From contig JAPLKZ010000005.1 in NCBI GenBank assembly GCA_026387835.1, positions 60,001-92,000 of the forward strand: a stretch of DNA of 32,000 bases. Direction: 5' to 3'. The translations under genes and the position numbers were made by a program. The DNA comes from Candidatus Saganbacteria bacterium (GTDB lineage Bacteria > Margulisbacteria > WOR-1 > JAKLHX01). The notes below the pieces were generated by a model, which was given only the letters and a program-made list of their open reading frames with translations, was not told where the DNA came from and searched no databases. Below, piece by piece: positions 18,412-32,000 of this stretch; position 1 is the stretch's first letter; each line of letters opens with the position of its first letter.

Positions 18412-18424
18412 TTCCCCTGTAGCT
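18412..18424 (+). repeat. 13-nt direct repeat, copy 2 (overlaps the tRNA 5' end)
   Basis: TTCCCCTGTAGCT, identical to 18276-18288. Confidence 0.9.
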
Positions 18425-18485
18425 CAATCGGTAGAGCACCTGACTGTTAATCAGGTTGTTGCTGGTTCGAGTCCAGCCGGGGGAG
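18413..18485 (+). tRNA. tRNA-Asn (anticodon GTT), 73 nt, CCA not encoded
   Basis: Hand-folded cloverleaf. Acceptor TCCCCTG/CGGGGGA (one G-U pair). D arm GCTC-AATCGGTA-GAGC. Anticodon arm CCTGA-CTGTTAA-TCAGG. 5-nt variable loop. T arm GCTGG-TTCGAGT-CCAGC. Discriminator G. Confidence 0.93.
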
Positions 18486-19859
18486 GAATTGAATATCAGA
18501 AGGCCCTTTGACGAATAAGTCGAAGGGCTTTTTGTATTCAGGTCGCAAAATATCTCCATCCAAATAGCAGTTCGATAATATTATGTTCATCAATTTCCGC
18601 TTTTCCTCTGCCGGCTGTGTCTTAAAGAGAGAATAAGCCTTTCTTGAAAGTTCGAGAATCCTTACCCCATCCTCGTAATAGTTGATATTAGAGCCCTTAT
18701 GGGCGTTGATCTTGATGTTTATGTTCTCAAGCTCATCTTTCCATTCCTCTGACTTGGATTGCCACTCAGCCTGCGTAATACCGCCGTCAAGCTTATCGGT
18801 ATACATTTGATCCAATCGGTTCTTAAGCTTCGTGTATTGCTGATTTAAAGCTGTTATAGCCTTATCGTTGTAGTCTCTCTCAGATTCATGGCTCTTATGA
18901 AGTGCCTCCTTTATCATCTCAAGATTGTGATCATCTATCTGAATATTCTTTAATAGCTCGGCAAGTCTTTCATCAAGGATCTCTTCACGGATATAATTCT
19001 TTTTACAATCACCGCCTTTATGTCCGGTGCAATGATAGTAGATGTATTTTCCTTTCTTCATCTCTGCTGTCACTGAGCAACCGCATTGAGAGCATGTCAA
19101 CAACCCCGTAAATGCAAAGTTCCTATGATTGCCTTTGTATTTATTCTTCTTTGCAAACATATCTTGTACAGTTTCGAATATGCCTTTATCGATAATAGGC
19201 TTGTGAATGCCTTTGTAAGTATGCTCCCTATGCACAAGTCCTTCCTTGGTCATGGCATCCCTTAATGACAATAGGGAATAATTACCGGTAGCATATAGTT
19301 CGAATGCTTTCTTCACTAACGGTGCAAGGATATTATCTTGCTCTATAAGGTGAGTTACTTTGTTGTTCCTATATCCAATCGGTGCTACGCCGGGGAATTC
19401 TCCTAACTCGGCTTTTGCTTTTAATCCCTTCTTAACTTCTTCCCCGAGATTGTTTACATAGTTTCTTGAAAGGACTGCCAGAAGATCAAGTTGTAATTTA
19501 TCTGATGACTTGGAGTTTTTATCCATGATCAAACCCTGCTTAAAGAAGTGAATCTCTTTGTCATGATTCTCCATTAGATCATAGGCCTCCAATAGATCGC
19601 TAAAGTTTCTTGTCATTCGATCAACCTTTTCGAAGACAATGACCTTAATATCCGGATGTGCTTTAGAGTATTCGATAATCTCCTTGAATGCTTTCCTGCC
19701 TTTAACCTTGGCTGATTCAGATACAGACCACTTCTTTACGATGGTCAGGCCTTTTCTTTCAGCGTATTTCTCGCCTTCTTTTTCCTGGGATTGCAGCGAA
19801 TAGCCTTCATCGGCTTGATCCTGAGAGGAAACCCGGACATATAGTAAGGCTTTATTCAT
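18447..19859 (-). CDS. Large serine recombinase (integrase type: resolvase catalytic domain, recombinase domain, zinc ribbon, coiled coil)
   Basis: N-terminus MNKALLYVRVSSQDQ (catalytic Ser motif). VFEKVDRMTRN. Zinc ribbon CSQCGCS...YYHCTGHKGGDC. Start set at ATG 19859, which forms an ATGA overlap with the res stop. The last ~40 codons are antisense to the tRNA terminator and T-arm (..PRLDSNQQQPD). Confidence 0.9.
   Translation of the reverse strand: MNKALLYVRVSSQDQADEGYSLQSQEKEGEKYAERKGLTIVKKWSVSESAKVKGRKAFKEIIEYSKAHPDIKVIVFEKVDRMTRNFSDLLEAYDLMENHDKEIHFFKQGLIMDKNSKSSDKLQLDLLAVLSRNYVNNLGEEVKKGLKAKAELGEFPGVAPIGYRNNKVTHLIEQDNILAPLVKKAFELYATGNYSLLSLRDAMTKEGLVHREHTYKGIHKPIIDKGIFETVQDMFAKKNKYKGNHRNFAFTGLLTCSQCGCSVTAEMKKGKYIYYHCTGHKGGDCKKNYIREEILDERLAELLKNIQIDDHNLEMIKEALHKSHESERDYNDKAITALNQQYTKLKNRLDQMYTDKLDGGITQAEWQSKSEEWKDELENINIKINAHKGSNINYYEDGVRILELSRKAYSLFKTQPAEEKRKLMNIILSNCYLDGDILRPEYKKPFDLFVKGPSDIQFLPRLDSNQQQPD
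18503..18533 (+). terminator. Rho-independent terminator of the tRNA
   Basis: 10-bp stem GCCCTTTGAC/GTCGAAGGGC (one G-U pair), loop GAATAA, then TTTTT (18529-18533). Confidence 0.8.
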
Positions 19860-22174
19860 AAGACAAGCTCTTTCCAATCGCTCCAATCATTATGCAAACA
19901 TTTTTCCCAGTCGAATGTAGTTTGTTGATTGATTAGCCATGAACCATTGACCTGAATGGCAATCCCACCGAATAGATCCTTTTTGTGATGTTCTTTGATA
20001 TAGCGTTGCAAAGCCTCATTTTTTGCTTTTGTAAATGTGCTTCCATCCTGGTCGCCTTTGTCTTTTGTTTCAAAGATTCCAATACGCCCATCATTGAATT
20101 GGACTAAATAATCCGGATAAAAGGTATGCAAAATACCTTTGGGGTATTCATATTTAATGCCGAAGTAATCTTTTTTATTTTCCCCGTTCTTCCACCACCA
20201 AACAATACTCTTGCTGTTATCCTCCAAATAACTCTCAAACTCCTCTTCAGGATTTGACCTGTCGATATTAAGGTAACAGGGATCAAGAATATATTTCTTT
20301 GCCTTTACTGTTTCGTCTGTATGTTGATTGTAGAATACCTCTTTTGCAATCTCAAAATCATAGAACTGCTCGCTTTCCTCGGACCGCTTTAATATTTCTT
20401 TCTCACGGACAGCTCTATACTCTTCTATGGCTTTCGAGAGGATGCCCTCGAAGATGATCCTATTTCCATTATGAACAAATATCTTCTGTACCATTAAGGA
20501 TTCTTCTTCCCATTCTCTAGAGCCAAGATACTTCTTAAACCAGACATAAATTGTTGTTTTGATCTTTGGAACTGACCTCTTAACATTCCTGAAAGATCCC
20601 AGGTTGTTCTTTATGATTTGTTCAAATAATGACTGCAAGTCATTTCCGGCAATTTGCAGCCTGGCTTTTAGTTCAGAATCAATAGTACCAATAACCTCGT
20701 CAAATGACTTGCCATCAATCTTTGCATCCTGTATTATTTCTTGCTCATATTTCTTAAGATCAATGACAACACCTTTCTTTTCAAGCAATCTTTTGTTCTC
20801 ATCGAAAAACTCTTGTTTTGTTATGCCGAATACAGAGCAAGCAATCTTATCGAATATAGGGTCGAAGCTTGCCGTAATGTCGCCATAGTCAACTCTTGAG
20901 CGATAATAGGATAGAAGTTTAATGTCCTTATAGCAGTCTTTACGAACGCCCTTCAAATGCTTGATAATATTTGGGTTATATTCTTCTCTCTTAACATGTA
21001 TGCTCTGAACATTTGTATAAATATATCCTATATTCAGTGCCTCATTTGAGTAATGCTTTAGTTCCGGCATTCTTAATATACGCCCAACGGTCTGGATTTC
21101 AAATGTTTCACTATGAGATTCCCTGAATTTAACAAGAATATGAGCTCTTGGACAATCCCAGCCGGTATCAATTGCTTGCTTAAAGATAAGATATTCAATC
21201 TCGTTGTCAGATTCAGATACCCAATCTAGGGTTTCTGACTTCTGTTCGGCAAGCCATATTGCAAGTTTTCTGTTCTTCTCAGTTACACCTTTGTCAGAAA
21301 GGAATCTTTTAACGGCTTCGATCTTGTCTTTCCCTGCTTCGGCGGTTGGAATTTGGATAAGAACTAGGGGGTTGATATTAGATCCTTCAGAATGAAACAG
21401 TTTCTTAAGCTCTAGCCGTTTCTGAAATGCCGCCTCAAGAACAACTTCCTGTGAATCATCTTCATCTTTAGCAATTTTGTCTATGCTTTGATTAATGATA
21501 AGCTCCTTCTTGATCACCCCAACATCAATAACATCTTTTGGCTCAACAAAAACAAAGCCTGCTGTATGCCTTGCCAGGTCTTTTGGGTCAGGTTGGATCC
21601 TTGGGGTAGCACTCATCTCGAGAATGACATCGGCATTTATCTCGTCTCTAAGTTCGTTTGTTCGCTCTGCCGTTGCCCCAATATGACTCTCATCAATAAT
21701 GAGAATTATCTTTCTCTGTTCTCTAGTCTTAGATAGAACTTCACGGAAGTTAATCTTCTCTCCATCTTTCATTAATACATTCTTCCAATCACCGGTGGAG
21801 CTATCTTTTGATCGTAGTTTTTCCCAGTTAACAACTACGACCTCGTTCTTAACTATGCGTTCACGCCCCCCATTAAATTCTTCTTCAACAAGTGAAACCC
21901 TGGGAGATCCGTCAAATATTCTTTCAAGGCTGTGCTTGCTCTGTAGATGTAGCTCGCCCTTGCCGACAGTAACCCAAACAAAACACATGTCCTCATCAGG
22001 AAGTTCCCTTATAAGTTCTTCAATGAATTTAGCGGTCATTATGGTTTTGCCGCTTCCCGTAGGAGCTTGAAATACACAAACCTTTTTCATCCCTTCTTTA
22101 TTTAACAAGCCTTTGACTGTACTTATTAGCTCATTCACGGCAACCCTTTGATATTCTTTTAGTTCAATATTCAT
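19856..22174 (-). CDS. res: Type III restriction enzyme Res subunit (SF2 helicase plus C-terminal PD-ExK nuclease)
   Basis: Motif I QAPTGSGKT, motif II IIDESH, motif III MSATP, motif VI QTVGRILR, and a C-terminal nuclease-like YPDYLV...IGIFETKDK. Start taken at MNIELK (22174, RBS GAGGA). In-frame ATGs at 22192 and 22186 are alternatives. Confidence 0.85.
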   Translation of the reverse strand: MNIELKEYQRVAVNELISTVKGLLNKEGMKKVCVFQAPTGSGKTIMTAKFIEELIRELPDEDMCFVWVTVGKGELHLQSKHSLERIFDGSPRVSLVEEEFNGGRERIVKNEVVVVNWEKLRSKDSSTGDWKNVLMKDGEKINFREVLSKTREQRKIILIIDESHIGATAERTNELRDEINADVILEMSATPRIQPDPKDLARHTAGFVFVEPKDVIDVGVIKKELIINQSIDKIAKDEDDSQEVVLEAAFQKRLELKKLFHSEGSNINPLVLIQIPTAEAGKDKIEAVKRFLSDKGVTEKNRKLAIWLAEQKSETLDWVSESDNEIEYLIFKQAIDTGWDCPRAHILVKFRESHSETFEIQTVGRILRMPELKHYSNEALNIGYIYTNVQSIHVKREEYNPNIIKHLKGVRKDCYKDIKLLSYYRSRVDYGDITASFDPIFDKIACSVFGITKQEFFDENKRLLEKKGVVIDLKKYEQEIIQDAKIDGKSFDEVIGTIDSELKARLQIAGNDLQSLFEQIIKNNLGSFRNVKRSVPKIKTTIYVWFKKYLGSREWEEESLMVQKIFVHNGNRIIFEGILSKAIEEYRAVREKEILKRSEESEQFYDFEIAKEVFYNQHTDETVKAKKYILDPCYLNIDRSNPEEEFESYLEDNSKSIVWWWKNGENKKDYFGIKYEYPKGILHTFYPDYLVQFNDGRIGIFETKDKGDQDGSTFTKAKNEALQRYIKEHHKKDLFGGIAIQVNGSWLINQQTTFDWEKCLHNDWSDWKELVL

Positions 22175-23975
22175 AAATGTCCTCATATACATCTAATATC
22201 TTCTGCGGAATTGGTTCTAATGATACATCTTTCCAGTCCTGGAAGTCCTGTTTGTCCAGTCCAAGAGGATCAAGAGTAAAGCAATATAATGTTTTTTTGC
22301 CTCCTATCTTGTCAAGATCCCTCTTAAGCGATTTCAATTCGCCACGCTCAAGAGAGTAATAAACTCCCATTGCATGATTGTTGTATTGATAAATACGATA
22401 GTCTCGCGTCTTTTTAATTTCATCAAATATTCCTTCACGCAAACATAGCATTTCCGTGCATTCTTGTGTGATACGACTTCTAAGGCTATCCTTACTAATT
22501 GATCGTTTAACAAAAGCTGTTTTGAAATATTTTAGATTTCCATTGGTGCCTTTTACTGCTTTACCGTTTAAGTCATTGTATCCTTTGATAATCTTACTTA
22601 TTCTGGGGTAGCATGCTTTCTGACAAATACCTTCTTTTTCATAAGCAATATCCCCTGGCTTCAGTCCTCTGCTCCTAAGCTCTTTATCTGTTTCTTCATT
22701 AACCTCATTATTTGTACACATAATGAAGCTGATTAAATTGTCATCGTCACGGTTTAATTCTAATACTGCTTGTGCTGTCGTCCCTGATCCTGCAAAAAAA
22801 TCCAAGATAACACTGCCTTTTTCTACAGTTGATTCAATCAGAAGCTTAAGCACATCTACATCTTTTGGATTGTCAAAATAGTCGCCACCTAATATATTCT
22901 TTAGTAATTTTCTGGCAGCTCTACGATCTTTGTAAATCACACTTGGTATTACCACGCCACCGGTTTCATGTAAATATCGTTTTACTTTTGGCACTGACAT
23001 TTCGTTTTCGCCCCAATGAATTCTACCCTCATTTATCCATTGATTTAATGTGTCTTTTGTAGGCCACCCTCGAACAGGAGCCTTGCAAGGTTTTTTTGTT
23101 ATAGGATGAATAACTTCGTACAACGGTCTGGAACGGCCACTCTCTGCCGAAATATCTCCGGCAAAGTAAATGCCTTTATTGTCAACATAGTTATAATGTT
23201 TATGCTGCCAACTTGGATGCTTCCTGTCTAGCCCTGCATACCATTCTTTGATCTTCTCGGAAACTATCACATAGTTATTTTTGTTTTTCTTTAACAAGTA
23301 TTTTACGGCTTTATTTATTTCATCAATACCCTTTTTCTTTACACGCCAGATAACTTTGCGATCTTTTAGATTGGTTTTTGACTTTGCATAACACAAAATA
23401 TAATCGTGCGACAAAGAAACAAATTTTGAATCATTCTTTAAGCCGCCCTCCCAAACCATCATTGCAATAAAGTTTTCAGTTCCATAGATTTCATCGCATA
23501 ACAACTTTAATTGAGCCACCTCATTATCATCAATTGATATTAAGATTAAGCCAGAATCTTTTAATAATTGTTTAGCCAAATAGAGACGTTTCTTAATAAA
23601 TGATAACCATTTACTATGCTTATATGAATCTTCGGAATCAATATACTTATCATTATATTTGAAGTCCTTATCACCCCTGTTATAAGGAGGATCAATATAT
23701 ATTAAGTCAACCTTGCTTTTATGGGTATAATTCAAAACGGAAAGAGCATGATAATTATCACCTTCTATTAGGATGTTAATAGGTTTAGAAGAATCAGTCT
23801 TAATGTCTCTGTTTTTAACTTCCTTTAGTACGGGAAGGGCATTATCTGATTCTTTTTCAAACTGCTCTTTTGTTCGTTCCTCATCCCATATAAGACCATA
23901 TTTCTTGCGAGACTCAAGCTTCTCAACAACCTTAAGTAGTTCTTCTTTTGACAGATTTGAATAATTGTTCGCCAT
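22164..23975 (-). CDS. mod: Type III DNA methyltransferase Mod subunit (beta-class N6A/N4C MTase)
   Basis: Motif IV DLIYIDPPYN precedes motif I DFFAGSGTT (beta-class order). The size and the overlap with the downstream res gene are typical of Type III systems. Confidence 0.9.
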   Translation of the reverse strand: MANNYSNLSKEELLKVVEKLESRKKYGLIWDEERTKEQFEKESDNALPVLKEVKNRDIKTDSSKPINILIEGDNYHALSVLNYTHKSKVDLIYIDPPYNRGDKDFKYNDKYIDSEDSYKHSKWLSFIKKRLYLAKQLLKDSGLILISIDDNEVAQLKLLCDEIYGTENFIAMMVWEGGLKNDSKFVSLSHDYILCYAKSKTNLKDRKVIWRVKKKGIDEINKAVKYLLKKNKNNYVIVSEKIKEWYAGLDRKHPSWQHKHYNYVDNKGIYFAGDISAESGRSRPLYEVIHPITKKPCKAPVRGWPTKDTLNQWINEGRIHWGENEMSVPKVKRYLHETGGVVIPSVIYKDRRAARKLLKNILGGDYFDNPKDVDVLKLLIESTVEKGSVILDFFAGSGTTAQAVLELNRDDDNLISFIMCTNNEVNEETDKELRSRGLKPGDIAYEKEGICQKACYPRISKIIKGYNDLNGKAVKGTNGNLKYFKTAFVKRSISKDSLRSRITQECTEMLCLREGIFDEIKKTRDYRIYQYNNHAMGVYYSLERGELKSLKRDLDKIGGKKTLYCFTLDPLGLDKQDFQDWKDVSLEPIPQKILDVYEDIYEY

Positions 23976-23976
23976 A

Positions 23977-24159
23977 TTACTTTTGCTTCCGTGTCTTCAA
24001 CAAATTCTCTATATGATATTTTTGTATCTTATTCGGTTTAACTCGATTGTTGAACCACCGATTTACTGTAGAAAAGGCAACCCCCAAGATCCCGGCAAGC
24101 TCTACCTGTGTGATCTTATTCTTCAAGCGATACTCTTCCAGTTCTTTAATCAAGTCCAT
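23977..24159 (-). CDS. XRE-family helix-turn-helix protein (possible controller of the R-M operon)
   Basis: HTH ITQVELAGILGVAFSTVNRWFN. Start chosen at MDLIKE (RBS AAGGA 7 nt upstream). The longer ORF begins at 24219. The stop lies 1 nt before the mod ATG. Confidence 0.7.
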   Translation of the reverse strand: MDLIKELEEYRLKNKITQVELAGILGVAFSTVNRWFNNRVKPNKIQKYHIENLLKTRKQK

Positions 24160-24232
24160 TTCAGCATCCTTTATAGCATAGTATAGCACTGCATATTTAA
24201 CATGTATATACTTCTTCATCCGTCAGTCAAAA

Positions 24233-24444: not shown

Positions 24445-24630
24445 TTAATTTCCTCCTTTCAAATTAGATGGCAGCTGTGCTTTCTCCATATCACCGCCTT
24501 CCTTTCTACAGAACACCCTGGGTATTCTGCTTTGAGTTCTTTCTTTTCTCCATATCTCAAGCATGGGAGCAGTCAAAATAGTTCTTTCCTTTTTACAGAC
24601 ATCTATAGATATAGCCATACCTATGGTCAT
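24445..24630 (-). CDS. Hypothetical 61-aa protein
   Basis: ATGA overlap with the upstream gene stop (24627-24630), and the ORF ends 2 nt before the next start. Coding status is supported only by this coupling geometry. Confidence 0.45.
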   Translation of the reverse strand: MTIGMAISIDVCKKERTILTAPMLEIWRKERTQSRIPRVFCRKEGGDMEKAQLPSNLKGGN

Positions 24631-24959
24631 TTATTTTGCCTCCCATAATAGAAGCTGCTATGCGGACCAATCAGTCTATATGTAGTGCGGCCTCCGAATA
24701 ATCCACCCTGTTTAATCTTCTCAATAAATCCATTATCTATAAGCTCTTTAAGTGCCTTGCTCATGGTTTTTGAACTAATCATGTCTTCCATACTGATATA
24801 TGATAGTTTCAGCACAAAAGGTTCTTTTGTGTTAAATGATTTTTTTAGGTATATGTAAATAATCTTTGTGGATTCCGATAATCTTCGAAAATTAGCATCA
24901 TCCAATAAATCATTTGGGAGCATTACGAAGGGAGGTGCTTTAGACTTTCCTTTTCCCAT
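24627..24959 (-). CDS. Winged-helix DNA-binding protein (phage/plasmid replication- or regulator-like)
   Basis: N-terminal F.MLPNDLLDD motif and the wHTH-like segment SYISMEDMISSKTMSKALKELIDNGFIEK. An alternative start at 24923 would give a TAATG overlap with the SpoVG-like gene. Confidence 0.6.
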   Translation of the reverse strand: MGKGKSKAPPFVMLPNDLLDDANFRRLSESTKIIYIYLKKSFNTKEPFVLKLSYISMEDMISSKTMSKALKELIDNGFIEKIKQGGLFGGRTTYRLIGPHSSFYYGRQNK

Positions 24960-25222
24960 AGCTTCACTTCCTTTTCATATTTTTCAATAATTGCATTTTC
25001 AATTAAGGTCTTTGTGTGTTCGTCCATAGGGGTATAAGAGAAGAATAATTCTCCTTGAGGTGTTCTTATCTTTGGGAAAGTTACCCAGCTGAGATGCCCG
25101 TCTGAATGAATAGCTATTGAAGACAGCTTGAGATTGAGTTCCCCGGTAAGGACGCATGATGCAAATGCTCTAAGCGTTTTCTCCGGCTTAATTCTTTTCA
25201 GTTCGATCGATTCTATCCTCAT
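24923..25222 (-). CDS. SpoVG-family nucleic-acid-binding protein
   Basis: Colinear with B. subtilis SpoVG as I recall it: I..I.L.RI.....LRAFAS..L...........I.I....L..V.FP..RTP.GE......P........I..A....Y. Confidence 0.7.
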   Translation of the reverse strand: MRIESIELKRIKPEKTLRAFASCVLTGELNLKLSSIAIHSDGHLSWVTFPKIRTPQGELFFSYTPMDEHTKTLIENAIIEKYEKEVKLWEKESLKHLPS

Positions 25223-27891: not shown

Positions 27892-28290
27892 ATGTCATTA
27901 AATCGTATGATCCTTACAGGAACCCTAACCCGTGACCCTGAATTAAGGTACACAAAGGAGGAGATTCCTGTTGCAAGATTCACTGTTGCCATTAAAAGCA
28001 TACAGAGAAAGGGCAAGGACAAAGACACGCAATACTTTAATTGTGTTGCATGGCGTGGACTTGCTTCTATCGTCGGTGAGTACCTAAAGAAGGGATCTTT
28101 GGTCGCCATAGAGGGAAAGCTTCAAATCAAGCCCTATGAAAGTAAGGGGATGAAGAAGCATTACACCGAGATCGTCGTAGACAATTTGCTGATGCTGGAC
28201 AAGAAGTTCTATGGCAAAGCAATACCCTCAGCAGAATCTGAAGATGTTACTTCAGAGGAAGGGAGTGAGATACATGGACAATGTGATTAG
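27892..28290 (+). CDS. ssb: Single-stranded DNA-binding protein
   Basis: OB-fold SSB pattern: NRMILTGTLTRDPELRYT...VARFTVA...TQYFNCVAWRGLA......YLKKGSLVAIEGKLQ. RBS AAAGGAG. The acidic tail lacks the canonical terminal DDIPF. Confidence 0.85.
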   Translation: MSLNRMILTGTLTRDPELRYTKEEIPVARFTVAIKSIQRKGKDKDTQYFNCVAWRGLASIVGEYLKKGSLVAIEGKLQIKPYESKGMKKHYTEIVVDNLLMLDKKFYGKAIPSAESEDVTSEEGSEIHGQCD

Positions 28291-29084: not shown

Positions 29085-30080
29085 CTAATAATAAATCCTT
29101 GTAGGGCCTTGAATATCTATTATTCTTCGTCCGTTTTCGTCATACTCCTCGAGTATCATATGAGTGTTTTTGTTTTCAATTCTTCTTGTTCGTCCATTAT
29201 CATAATAATATTTCCAAATCCCAACCTCCACCCCATTAAGGTATTGTCCAACATAACATAGTCTCCCATTTTCATAATAGTCCTTTCTAACTCCGTGTAA
29301 TTCGCCATTTTTATAGTTACATATGCTCTCCACCTTACCGTTATCATAGTGGGATCGCTGTTCACCATGAAGTTCTCCGTTTTTATAATTCGCACCCCCT
29401 GACTTGCCATCGAGTTCCCAGTCCTTATAATTAGAGATCTTTATTGGCTTACCGTCATGTAGTAGTCCTCGAGAATATTCAATAGTCTGCCCATTGAGTT
29501 TCCCGTTTTTGAATGTTCTAACTTCTAGTGTGGTTCCATCGGAATTATATTCAATGCTTTTCCCTTCGATCAATCCATTTATATAATATTGTTTCTTTAG
29601 CAGATGCATATCTGCGTCATATATTTTTCTTTCCCCGCTTATTAATCCTTCCCCATTTAATTTCTTGCTATCATAATACATTTTTGAGCCACTAAATTCA
29701 TCCTTTTCAAATTCCGGAATAGGGTGATACTTGCTCTCCACATATGAGGAACCATCTGAACATCCCCACACGGGAATAACATCAGGATCCCCGATGTTGG
29801 ATAATATACCACTCCGAATCCACGCAACGATATTGGAATCAGGTTTATATAGGATCTTATACATCTGACCGTCACCAGAATTTGAGATCACCTTATATGT
29901 TTCGGATTTATTTACAACCCCAATAATATTGTGGCTATCATCGTATACTTCTCCTGTGCTAATCACATATGCATACTCACCTCCAGAAATAGCCAAACAA
30001 CTCCCATAAATCATACTAATTAAAAATAGCGACAAGCATATAGAGATTATTTGTTTGAAGCAATTCGACTTAAATGTCAT
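29085..30080 (-). CDS. Secreted MORN-variant (YwqK-like) repeat protein with an N-terminal SH3-like region
   Basis: Signal peptide present. Repeats of the Y.NG...G....YY.NG type, for example YKNGELHGEQRSHYDNGKVESICNYKNGELHGVRKDYYENGRL. Start at the second ATG (30080, RBS GGAAGA); the ORF-track start is 30086. Confidence 0.75.
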   Translation of the reverse strand: MTFKSNCFKQIISICLSLFLISMIYGSCLAISGGEYAYVISTGEVYDDSHNIIGVVNKSETYKVISNSGDGQMYKILYKPDSNIVAWIRSGILSNIGDPDVIPVWGCSDGSSYVESKYHPIPEFEKDEFSGSKMYYDSKKLNGEGLISGERKIYDADMHLLKKQYYINGLIEGKSIEYNSDGTTLEVRTFKNGKLNGQTIEYSRGLLHDGKPIKISNYKDWELDGKSGGANYKNGELHGEQRSHYDNGKVESICNYKNGELHGVRKDYYENGRLCYVGQYLNGVEVGIWKYYYDNGRTRRIENKNTHMILEEYDENGRRIIDIQGPTRIYY

Positions 30081-30117
30081 TTGCATTCTTCCGCGATAAG
30101 CTGTTTTCTTTACTACG

Positions 30118-30171: not shown

Positions 30172-30393
30172 ATGATGTCAAATGAGAGCCTGAAAAAGGC
30201 AGTTGGCAGAAGAATAACTTCCCTCCGGAAAGCCAAGAATCTTACCATTGAAAAGCTTGCTTATGAGAACGATCTTGCTAAGGGCAATCTGAGTGAGCTT
30301 GAAAAGGGAAAGATTAACCCGCAACTTACGACCCTGTATAGAATTGCAAAGGGATTGGACTTGTCCTTGAAAGAATTGCTGGATATAGATTAA
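30172..30393 (+). CDS. XRE-family HTH transcriptional regulator
   Basis: LRKAKNLTIEKLAYENDLAKGNLSELEKGKINPQLTTLYRIAKGLDLSLKELL is the canonical HTH_3 pattern. Confidence 0.85.
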   Translation: MMSNESLKKAVGRRITSLRKAKNLTIEKLAYENDLAKGNLSELEKGKINPQLTTLYRIAKGLDLSLKELLDID

Positions 30394-30405: not shown

Positions 30406-31515
30406 TTATAGTGAAATACCGGACTTCGCAAGAAGATCATTGTAAAGTTTTGCCTGTCCAGATGATCCAGGGATATATGCTTCCCGATTAAAATCACCAT
30501 CTTTCAAATCGATTTTATTGAAAATATTTTGAAATTCAGTTATTGATATTACCTTGTCTGGTTTTTTAAAGCTAACGTAGATATCTTTTAATAATTTCAT
30601 CAATGCAATAAATCCCGTAGATCTGTTAAGAATGGAATTCTCTTGGACTTTAGTCCACGCATCCTCCCATTTGTTTTGAATGGCCATGAAATAATTCCAA
30701 ATTATCATTGTTATTATCTCGTCTTTTTCATCAATAAAAAGATTTCTGAATATAAGCTTAATTGTTTCATCCCCAACAATGCTCTTAGGTTTTCCGCCAC
30801 GCTTGTATATATCCCTATCATTCATCGGGTTTTTCGTTATATACTTCATAATGTTTTGTGCCATTGTGGCTTGAGTTATTGTCTCTTTTTCTTTGTCTAA
30901 TGCAGTACCAAGCAGTTTTATTTTTCCGTAAAATGGACTTCCCTTTTTGAAGTTTAATACCCGAGTAATATTATGTGCTGTCTTCTGAGGGCTTCTTGAT
31001 TTTGCATATTCAAACAGATCTATTACGAGTGATTGATTAACTTTAGTTTGAGTTTTATTAATAGTTGCGAATAGTATCGCCTGATCTTCTATTTCCATGT
31101 CGATAAAGATTGTAACGTTAAGCTGGAACTTCTCCGCTGCCATGCTATTGTCTTCAAAACCGGCAATTCTATGCTGCCCGTCTAATATTTTTGCAATATC
31201 TGGCCTTTTAATTATGGTTAATTTCTTATTATCAGGATCATAGGACACATTATCAGAGTCTATCGAAAGAATTATGCTTGTTGGAAAAGAAGCATCGACC
31301 AGATTAATGTACTGTTTTAAATCGTCAACTCTCTTTGGGGAGAGAGGCCTCTGTATTCCAATATATTTTTCTATGTCTCTCTCTTCGATTCTTCTTATGT
31401 CGCTAAACGTGATTGATAGCAGATCTTTAAAGTTTATTCTGCCGATGTAAAATTTGCCTATAGGTTGATTTACTTCTATAGAATCGATTGTTATTTTATC
31501 TGCTTTATCTGCCAT
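30406..31515 (-). CDS. DGQHR-domain protein (DndB-like, ParB/Srx-fold)
   Basis: Literal motif KILDGQHRIAG. An upstream GIQRPL...RV..L..Y and FPTSIILSI follow the DGQHR-domain (TIGR03187-type) pattern. The ATG overlaps the upstream gene stop (TAATG). Confidence 0.85.
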   Translation of the reverse strand: MADKADKITIDSIEVNQPIGKFYIGRINFKDLLSITFSDIRRIEERDIEKYIGIQRPLSPKRVDDLKQYINLVDASFPTSIILSIDSDNVSYDPDNKKLTIIKRPDIAKILDGQHRIAGFEDNSMAAEKFQLNVTIFIDMEIEDQAILFATINKTQTKVNQSLVIDLFEYAKSRSPQKTAHNITRVLNFKKGSPFYGKIKLLGTALDKEKETITQATMAQNIMKYITKNPMNDRDIYKRGGKPKSIVGDETIKLIFRNLFIDEKDEIITMIIWNYFMAIQNKWEDAWTKVQENSILNRSTGFIALMKLLKDIYVSFKKPDKVISITEFQNIFNKIDLKDGDFNREAYIPGSSGQAKLYNDLLAKSGISL

Positions 31516-32000
31516 TATTTGCCCTCTGGATTTTCTGGTCCTGTTGTGTCCTTTCCAGATTCTGATTCTGGAGTTGTAGCAGCATCTTCTTCTTTAAGTT
31601 TCACCATAAGATCATCTATTTCATTGTCGCTTTCTTGTTTCAGATCGACATCGGGAAGATCTTCTTTTGATTCAAACTGGACTGAAAGGGCTCGATAAGA
31701 ACAATAAATAGAGAAACAGATTAATAATACTGAGACCCACCTTACTAAGTTTAGGTCGATGTTAATCGCAGTATTTAAAACGGGGATTATTTGTCCGGAT
31801 AAAAATATCCCACCATACATAACTGAGGAAAAAATAATAAACCATATTAAAGATATGCTTATATAATAATCGACCATCATATTCTTTTTAAGAATCCATT
31901 CTTTATTCTCATTTTCATTAAATAAAAACAATGAGGAGGATAGCAGAGCAGCACTATACAGGAAGAGATCTCCTTTATCAATAAATATATGAACTTCTTT
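31515..32000 (-). CDS. Membrane protein with a strongly acidic C-terminal tail, N-terminus probably outside the window
   Basis: At least 2 TM helices (YYISISLIWFIIFSSVMYGGIFL and WVSVLLICFSIYCSY), then an Asp/Glu-rich tail of about 55 aa. The track start (31931) is a TTG with no RBS, and the frame stays open to base 32000. Confidence 0.5.
   Translation of the reverse strand, partial: KEVHIFIDKGDLFLYSAALLSSSLFLFNENENKEWILKKNMMVDYYISISLIWFIIFSSVMYGGIFLSGQIIPVLNTAINIDLNLVRWVSVLLICFSIYCSYRALSVQFESKEDLPDVDLKQESDNEIDDLMVKLKEEDAATTPESESGKDTTGPENPEGK

Follow-up and report, generated by a model that had tools for sequence, protein, structure and literature searches.

Proteins of the DGQHR/DndB-like kind are common, and just two roles have been established for them, that of the repressor DndB and that of the modification ATPase DpdB. 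DndB was shown experimentally to repress dndBCDE, binding to TACGN10CGTA sites (PMC4507180), and DpdB is a DNA-stimulated ATPase, the activity of which is needed for DpdA-dependent DNA modification (PMC10164549). In SspE and GmrSD a ParB-fold domain senses the modification state of DNA (PMC10164549, PMC4619093), SspE being a phosphorothioate-sensing nucleoside triphosphatase (NTPase) and nickase (PMC10164549). A DndB-like protein has also been found to bind ATP and GTP (bioRxiv 10.1101/2025.10.10.680097). Here we analyze a DGQHR protein encoded in a stretch of 32,000 nucleotides (nt) of contig JAPLKZ010000005.1 from a Candidatus Saganbacteria bacterium, hereafter the window. The gene for this 369-amino acid (aa) protein, which we call D (30406-31515, minus strand; defined from the list of open reading frames (ORFs) and by profile searches), is preceded by a gene for a membrane protein, S, which runs off the window. 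An earlier, sequence-only reading had regarded the two as an orphan, possibly undescribed defence-type module. Our results show that they are the distal two-thirds of a three-gene operon, M-S-D, the first gene of which encodes a DNA methylase, and we propose that this operon is probably an undescribed defence cassette that resembles restriction-modification (R-M) systems in its logic.

Only the 3' 486 nt of the S gene lie within the window (31515-32000, minus strand). They contain the TAA stop codon (31515-31517), and this stop and the start codon of D, an ATG, overlap by a shared A in the sequence TAATG (31513-31517). This overlap had been correctly described from the sequence, as had the fact that the frame of S is still open at base 32000. 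A protein identical to D is encoded on ten further contigs, which were used to read the genes past the window edge and thus to carry out the extension that the sequence-only reading had called for. One of these contigs, L001, shares 11,595 nt with the window without a single mismatch, window base 32000 corresponding to L001 position 5562. The S gene extends for 135 nt beyond the window and is complete on the identical contigs (L001 5427-6047), where it encodes a protein of 206 aa (201 aa in the NCBI annotation of a Candidatus Saganbacteria metagenome-assembled genome). Upstream of it, the same contigs hold M, the gene for a D12-class methylase of 272 aa (32135-32953 in virtual coordinates, L001 4609-5427, minus strand), and the stop codon of M overlaps the start of S in a second TAATG. 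The unit is therefore not two genes but three, with TAATG at both junctions, and since M lies next to S-D, D cannot be called an orphan: a DGQHR protein once again accompanies a DNA-modification enzyme. The whole cassette measures about 2.5 kb. It is separated by a spacer of 390 nt, 5' of M, from unrelated genes of higher GC content, which encode a metallophosphatase, a carbonic anhydrase and an HMGL-like enzyme. Neither the window nor the approximately 8.5 kb past it contains any dnd, ssp or dpd gene, including dndCDE and those for the desulfurase, DpdA/TGT and DpdC, and the sequence-only reading, which had seen no such modification genes to the left of the pair, is supported in this respect.

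M matches the Pfam family MethyltransfD12 with E = 7e-49. Its best solved relative is DpnM (2dpm, E = 4e-49), followed by Escherichia coli Dam, and in PADLOC it scores 343 bits against the type II methyltransferase model versus 198 bits against the orphan methyltransferase models. Both signature motifs are intact, namely, EPFLGSGAV (FxGxG) and FVDPPY (DPPY). Judging from these matches, M is a D12-class (alpha) N6-adenine DNA methylase closest to DpnM. DpnM is the GATC methylase of the DpnII system, and M probably marks GATC as well. M supplies the cognate methylase of a type II R-M system, and no restriction endonuclease was found beside it, neither S nor D matching any such family in Pfam, PADLOC or NCBIfam. 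In the region 5' of M (L001 4336-4509, virtual coordinates approximately 33053-33226), TATGCGATTA occurs twice, 45 nt apart, along with a third, degenerate copy, TACGCGATTGCA, and TTCGCAA is repeated in the 390-nt spacer. These repeats could be local operator sites, but they do not recur in 52 related loci.

To define the conserved unit, we compared 84 loci, 80 of which are genome loci picked by similarity to D alone and four come from three earlier neighbourhoods; their ORFs were searched with profiles of S, M and D. The hosts represent at least 14 phyla. S is encoded directly upstream of D in 83 of the 84 loci, the remaining one being cut by the contig end 33 nt upstream of D, and in 76 of the 84 the gap between the end of S and the beginning of D measures -14 to +15 nt. 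A gene for a DNA amino-methylase, mostly of the D12 class, is present within -5/+3.5 kb of D in 79 of the 84 loci (79 of the 82 with adequate flank). The exact order D12-S-D was found 49 times, and the M stop and the S start are separated by 26 nt or less in 53 of 62 cases. Pairwise distance matrices are correlated between S and D (r = 0.79) and between M and D (r = 0.58), the observed values being reached in 0 of 999 permutations of the Mantel test. Conservation of this kind across phyla argues that the S-D pair is not a matter of chance, so that the sequence-only reading was right in regarding the DGQHR protein and the membrane protein as genuinely coupled. S-D is an invariant pair that moves between phyla and is almost always docked to some DNA amino-methylase. 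The cassette is distributed patchily, with 50-60% identity between distant phyla, and appears to have been transferred horizontally. The neighbourhoods inspected earlier illustrate the range of arrangements. In a locus from Ignavibacteriae, genes for a methylase, a 175-aa protein and a DGQHR protein are inserted among xanthine dehydrogenase genes; the Echinicola locus encodes a methylase, a small protein and a DGQHR protein plus an extra gene of 764 aa; and on a contig from Patescibacteria the order is a 168-aa protein, the DGQHR protein and the methylase. The small proteins, four in all, align at 30-34% identity. None of dndC, dndD, dndE or the desulfurase was seen in the annotated related loci or among the neighbouring ORFs scanned with Pfam.

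The family of D is large, with 2,611 matches at E ≤ 1e-5, and the top 120 relatives, from distant phyla, are 51-60% identical to D and about 365-385 aa long each. In phage genomes, the relatives of D are weak and partial only. The translation contains the motifs IQRPL, SFPTSIILS, ILDGQHRIAG and FATINKTQ, including the LDGQHRIAG, QRPL and FPTSII elements by which the protein had been recognized originally. Profile searches agree with that recognition: D scores 209.6 bits against the NCBIfam DGQHR domain TIGR03187 (cut-off 58.85) and 55.4 bits against Pfam DndB PF14072 (cut-off 29.1), the latter match covering residues 21-316 and thus most of the protein. Across 26 homologues, Q55/R56, D112-R116 (DGQHR), F149 and N153 are invariant or nearly so. 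The AlphaFold model of D (predicted local distance difference test score (pLDDT) of 81) shows a ParB/sulfiredoxin-like domain at the N-terminus and, at the C-terminus, a helical domain that is predicted well. Searches with this model using Foldseek produced weak matches in the Protein Data Bank to the ParB N-domain and sulfiredoxin (probability 0.8-0.96, E > 0.01) and matches among viral models to DndB-like proteins, GmrSD-N, AIPR and ParB-like nucleases, with E down to 1e-9; no relatives with solved structures were found by sequence at E ≤ 1. Taken on its motifs and modelled fold, D is a full-length DndB-type protein of the ParB/sulfiredoxin fold in which the QR, DGQHR and FxxxN motifs are intact.

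The best full-length family match of D is TIGR04172, aligned over positions 2-377 of the 381 in the profile, yet the score of 210 bits is below the equivalog cut-off of 450. Similarly, D scores 79.7 bits against DpdB (NF041060), for which the equivalog cut-off is 300. In PADLOC, D matches solely DpdB (86.9 bits, the best) and DndB (27.2 bits). D matches no profile of HNH, DUF1524, PD-(D/E)xK or HEPN domains in Pfam, PADLOC or NCBIfam; it has no Pfam match to DUF262, and (E/D)HxxP is absent from the columns conserved among the 26 homologues. Neither a ParB-type helix-turn-helix (HTH) nor a C-terminal dimerisation domain was detected in D with Pfam, and there is no ParA partner in the neighbourhood. 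D belongs to the DGQHR/DndB superfamily, yet it is neither DndB nor DpdB, nor a member of TIGR04172 or SspE/GmrSD, since for every one of these a defining feature that we tested is lacking.

S is a predicted inner-membrane protein of approximately 175-206 aa with four helices and a short conserved C-terminal helix placed in the cytoplasm. The hydrophobic segments, delineated from family-averaged hydropathy, span residues of about 20-42, 56-73, 89-112 and 128-148. The N-terminus is rich in lysine and arginine, suggesting that both ends of the protein are cytoplasmic. The fourth helix is followed by a short conserved motif, P-x-[VI]-D, and a further helix. The membrane protein had been described as multi-pass with an Asp/Glu-rich tail, and so it is, 15 of the last 45 residues being acidic; the long tail itself, however, is particular to this lineage, since homologues of S end about 30 residues earlier and the extra acidic stretch is unique to the Saganbacteria copy. 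In the AlphaFold2 model, which is of low confidence (pLDDT 68, predicted template-modelling score 0.40), four long helices are followed by a C-terminal helix and a disordered tail, and no fold match to this model was found. Nor did S match anything in Pfam, NCBIfam, PADLOC or PHROG, in keeping with the earlier view that the pair is unlike known defence-system models. A word-indexed homology search with S alone recovered just S itself. A profile search yielded 36 proteins, every one of them named 'hypothetical', and the exhaustive profile search yielded 321 clusters at 50% identity, nearly all of them stand-alone proteins of 150-220 aa. The apparent fusion of 470 aa (P0234) was dismissed because it contains no Pfam domain and its N-terminus resembles a mis-called frame in high-GC DNA.

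The methylase linked to S-D is not always of the same family. In loci without an adjacent D12 gene, it is of the N6_N4 family in five, of the MT-A70 family in two and a divergent D12 in others. Restriction endonucleases (DpnII, BglII/BstYI, HNH) are confined to a minority of the related loci. Three loci encode a D12 methylase, the DpnII endonuclease, S, D and an N6_N4 methylase, that is, a complete DpnII cassette, and one encodes the BglII endonuclease, an MT-A70 methylase, S and D. On an Acinetobacter plasmid, genes for a BglII/BstYI endonuclease, an HTH protein and an adenine methylase precede S and D, and in pRiA4 genes for an MT-A70 methylase and a BglII/BstYI endonuclease lie a few genes away from S-D. 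Toxin-antitoxin genes are found near S-D in plasmid loci. In five loci (L011 5091-7385, L015, L017, L044 and L070) a gene for a fusion protein of about 760-810 aa (764 aa in Echinicola) stands between M and S, on the opposite strand in L070. This protein combines a nuclease region, CARF-associated and PD-(D/E)xK-like, with another DGQHR domain and may be an added nuclease effector. In a locus from Patescibacteria (L013 1973-6594), S, D and the methylase are followed by RadC, a 470-aa protein with a MutH domain, a Dcm-type C5 methylase and Vsr, so that GATC- and mismatch-related functions are encoded beside the S-D module.

A similar arrangement is found in the sister family TIGR04172, the closest to D over its full length and a hypothetical equivalog in NCBIfam. 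True members were looked at on three alphaproteobacterial plasmids, from Ruegeria, Rhizobium phaseoli and Pontibrevibacter, where they are annotated as 'DNA phosphorothioation-associated DGQHR protein 1' (with their partners, L097 7438-9212, L099 8456-10209 and L100 8438-10233). Immediately before each, and overlapping its start by 1 or 4 nt, lies the gene for an unannotated protein of about 175-180 aa in which four segments are hydrophobic. These partners with four transmembrane (4-TM) segments escape detection by the S profile, and their comparison with PADLOC gave a marginal match to a 2TM 'Effector' (E = 0.009). After the last hydrophobic segment, they carry a W-W-x-A-N-(G/W)-D motif. On two of the plasmids the pair is located beside a Pbe-like restriction cluster ('PT system restriction enzyme', an AAA/ABC ATPase and 'PT-associated protein 4', PT denoting phosphorothioation), which in Ruegeria adjoins dndBCDE with its own separate DndB; on the third it is located beside dndC/dndD and a class I methyltransferase dependent on S-adenosylmethionine (SAM). 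A DGQHR protein plus a 4-TM protein is thus a two-gene module tied to DNA-marking systems of two chemistries.

What could such a module do? We infer that M-S-D serves modification-based discrimination of self from non-self, with an undescribed non-self arm. The explanation that we place first, tentatively and somewhat short of an even chance, is that M marks self DNA and a membrane-anchored complex of S and D acts on DNA that lacks the mark. M would mark the resident DNA, probably at GATC, and S would hold D at the membrane. D would be a DNA-binding or nicking protein gated by nucleoside triphosphates (NTPs) and directed to unmarked DNA; the ATPase activity of DpdB suggests, by analogy, that D has NTPase activity too. 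The S-D complex would block or nick incoming DNA without the mark, in a manner reminiscent of the supercomplex that Kiwa forms at the membrane, or alternatively D would signal via S to collapse the membrane in an abortive infection. Loss of M would render S-D toxic, which would explain why S-D is rarely found without a methylase. Dam-like methylases often occur without S-D, whereas S-D hardly ever lacks a methylase, and in this the relation would be asymmetric in the way known from restriction endonucleases and the methylases that belong to them. This asymmetry, the neighbouring R-M and phosphorothioation-restriction genes, the nuclease-DGQHR fusion, the patchy distribution, the setting in a low-GC island with a recombinase-like ORF and type III-like R-M genes, and the mark-sensing relatives of the ParB fold are the reasons for which we favour an R-M-like cassette. 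A bolder version, which we regard as speculative and doubtful, is that S-D is a portable restriction arm for which the chemical nature of the mark does not matter. It would act as a ParB-fold clamp or nickase, anchored in the membrane, gated by NTPs and devoid of a classical nuclease domain, would plug into whichever DNA-marking enzyme is adjacent (m6A/m4C methylases from any of three families or, in the sister clade, phosphorothioation) and would intercept unmarked DNA at the cell envelope.

Several observations weigh against the R-M-like reading. No nuclease domain was recognized in D or S with Pfam, PADLOC or NCBIfam, so that restriction activity is assumed rather than seen. Avoidance of GATC would be expected under long-standing restriction at this site, and no such footprint was found: in the 41.5-kb composite of the window and its extension, the observed/expected ratio of GATC is 1.28 in the island that carries the operon and in the host flanks alike. 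S-D has no methylase within 8 kb in three loci, and it is superfluous for restriction wherever a classical restriction endonuclease is already present. The model of S, as noted, is of low confidence. Finally, the DGQHR proteins characterized so far are not restriction enzymes: DndB represses transcription (PMC4507180), and DpdB assists modification (PMC10164549).

There are four rival explanations. D could act in the manner of DndB, binding DNA under the influence of NTPs so as to repress or limit the neighbouring genes for the methylase or the R-M system, with S sequestering it at the membrane and releasing it on a signal. Homology to DndB does span most of D, DndB itself represses its operon (PMC4507180), no nuclease domain is found in D, and S-D occurs with complete R-M systems, for which a further nuclease would be unnecessary. 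Yet no conserved palindrome, k-mer or operator-like motif was found 5' of M across the 52 loci, although D is about 52% identical among them. D is, moreover, linked to methylases of three unrelated families in differing gene orders, which makes a common operator unlikely; the membrane partner, obligatory here, is foreign to DndB; and the sister pair coexists with a bona fide DndB and a restriction cluster in one phosphorothioation plasmid. We therefore consider a regulatory role rather unlikely. Somewhat less probable still is a guard of abortive infection, in which S is a pore-forming or depolarising toxin silenced by D, and D keeps watch on the state of the methylase or of methylation (which might be upset by phage anti-restriction, depletion of SAM or a surge of unmethylated DNA, for instance) and sets S free, which then kills the cell. 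Back-up suicide effectors adjoining modification systems have been proposed from comparative work (PMC10853773, PMC12839542), and S-D beside complete R-M systems could be such a back-up layer. An invariant small multi-TM partner, the strong co-evolution of S and D and the toxin-antitoxin genes near the plasmid loci are all consistent with it. S, on the other hand, resembles no known membrane effector model, with 0 matches in PADLOC, and its helices show no conserved pattern of charged residues that would indicate a channel. Sequence alone cannot separate this guard from the R-M-like cassette.

A role of D in modification itself appears improbable. D would here be an ATPase that aids the methylase on DNA as DpdB aids DpdA, perhaps as the DNA comes in at the membrane, in a role comparable to that of DpnA, which protects incoming single strands. 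The operon is tight with M in first place, S-D is flanked by cassettes of the DpnII type that include N6_N4 as a second methylase, DpdB is the PADLOC model on which D scores highest, and the ATPase of DpdB is required for DpdA-dependent modification (PMC10164549). D is, however, far under the DpdB equivalog cut-off, and S-D survives swaps of the methylase family and occurs in three loci without any linked methylase. It is established enzymology that D12, N6_N4 and MT-A70 methylases function without accessory ATPases. The least probable explanation is one of housekeeping or element maintenance, in which a membrane-tethered ParB-like protein and a Dam-type methylase would help to time the replication of the element or to partition it, in the manner of SeqA/Dam or of ParB. 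The ParB fold of D and the RepA_N-like, SSB and recombinase genes of the island would suit it. The missing ParA partner and the undetected ParB-type HTH and dimerisation domains speak against it, as do the location of the cassette among unrelated metabolic genes elsewhere, its ties to restriction endonucleases and phosphorothioation restriction clusters and its patchy distribution at 50-60% identity between distant phyla.

The operon is situated in an island with a GC content of 0.37, compared with 0.47 in the flanks. The drop begins near a tRNA-Asn gene (GTT; 18412-18486, plus strand) and continues past the end of the window. The tRNA gene is overlapped by the 3' end of a serine-recombinase-like ORF of 479 aa (18447-19886, minus strand), the function of which was read from the translation only. 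Together, these features fit an integrated element of about 15 kb with M-S-D at its far end. The end of the island at tRNA-Asn and its opposite end have no direct repeats of ≥12 nt in common, and the exact right boundary of the element is consequently undefined. Missing direct repeats are expected with a serine recombinase. Next to the recombinase, the island encodes type III-like Res (778 aa, ResIII/SWI2_SNF2; 19856-22192, minus strand) and Mod (603 aa, N6_N4_Mtase; 22164-23975, minus strand), the genes of which overlap, and a protein of 80 aa with an HTH_3 domain that precedes Mod/Res (23977-24219). Mod/Res is a second, independent methylation-based system of the same island. A RepA_N-like protein with a faint Pfam match (24627-24959), a SpoVG-like protein (24923-25222) and SSB (27892-28290) suggest an element able to replicate, of the kind of integrative and conjugative or mobilizable elements or phage-plasmids. 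A MORN-repeat protein of 333 aa, hydrophobic in a segment at its N-terminus (29085-30086, minus strand), is polymorphic among the otherwise identical contigs, with 331 aa in L001, L002 and L005 and 309 aa in L003 and L006-L010, indicating that this gene varies within the population. An XRE-type HTH protein (Pfam; 30172-30393) is encoded next to D. The sequence-only reading had inferred a defence island from the mobile element, the R-M system and the XRE regulator; all three are present, but XRE-like ORFs were found nearby in just five of the 84 loci and the regulator was rejected as a component of the system. GCGC is nearly missing from the island (2 observed, 10 expected), and CTAG is depleted throughout the composite (0.45).

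Nothing matching the S family or the S-D pairing is contained in PADLOC-DB 2.0, and neither the recent comparative studies that re-examine Dnd and BREX nor the rest of the full-text literature, coverage of which is incomplete, was found to describe the pair. The pair defines a third setting of DGQHR proteins, in which an obligatory DGQHR and 4-TM couple is associated with ordinary DNA methylases in at least 14 phyla, sometimes inside textbook R-M cassettes, and is mirrored in phosphorothioation systems. If the pair is indeed the non-self arm, restriction would proceed from the membrane without a canonical nuclease, and this would account for many seemingly orphan Dam-like methylases in metagenomic genomes. 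A portable restriction arm, if true, would represent a new class of restriction effectors and provide a function for many uncharacterised DGQHR proteins. The cassette is small, only three genes, and its methylase is a putative GATC enzyme, so that the self/non-self prediction can be checked directly in E. coli dam+ and dam- strains.

Among the described systems, DndB shares with D the PF14072 domain, the DGQHR motif, the two-domain architecture and a DNA-modifying enzyme next door, but it has no membrane partner, the locus described here has no dndCDE/desulfurase genes, and no conserved operator was found in the 52 loci compared. DpdB, for its part, has the ParB fold and a (D)GQ(H/Q)R motif, ends in a helical domain as D does, and provides the best PADLOC model for D; unlike D, it is a soluble protein without a TM partner, and no DpdA/TGT or DpdC is encoded at the D locus. 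SspE/GmrSD (DUF262-DUF1524) proteins possess a ParB-fold NTPase domain with a related DGQQR motif, and the D model matches viral GmrSD-N, whereas D lacks the C-terminal HNH-type DUF1524 nuclease domain and (E/D)HxxP. With respect to DpnII (DpnM/DpnA/DpnB), M is close to DpnM, and in three related loci S-D is located between the DpnII endonuclease and N6_N4 genes; in M-S-D itself, S and D stand in the place of a recognisable restriction endonuclease. Kiwa forms a supercomplex at the membrane and responds to infection by phages as well as to conjugation (bioRxiv 10.1101/2023.02.26.530102). Its likeness to S-D is confined to working logic, a small four-helix membrane protein (KwaA) acting with a cytosolic DNA-directed protein (KwaB), as S and D match no Kiwa model of PADLOC-DB 2.0 and Kiwa contains no methylase or ParB-fold protein. 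TIGR04172, finally, is only about 28% identical to D and is encoded in a dnd/Pbe-like context rather than next to a Dam-type methylase, but it shares with D the arrangement itself, a 4-TM partner overlapping its start and a DNA-modification system at its side.

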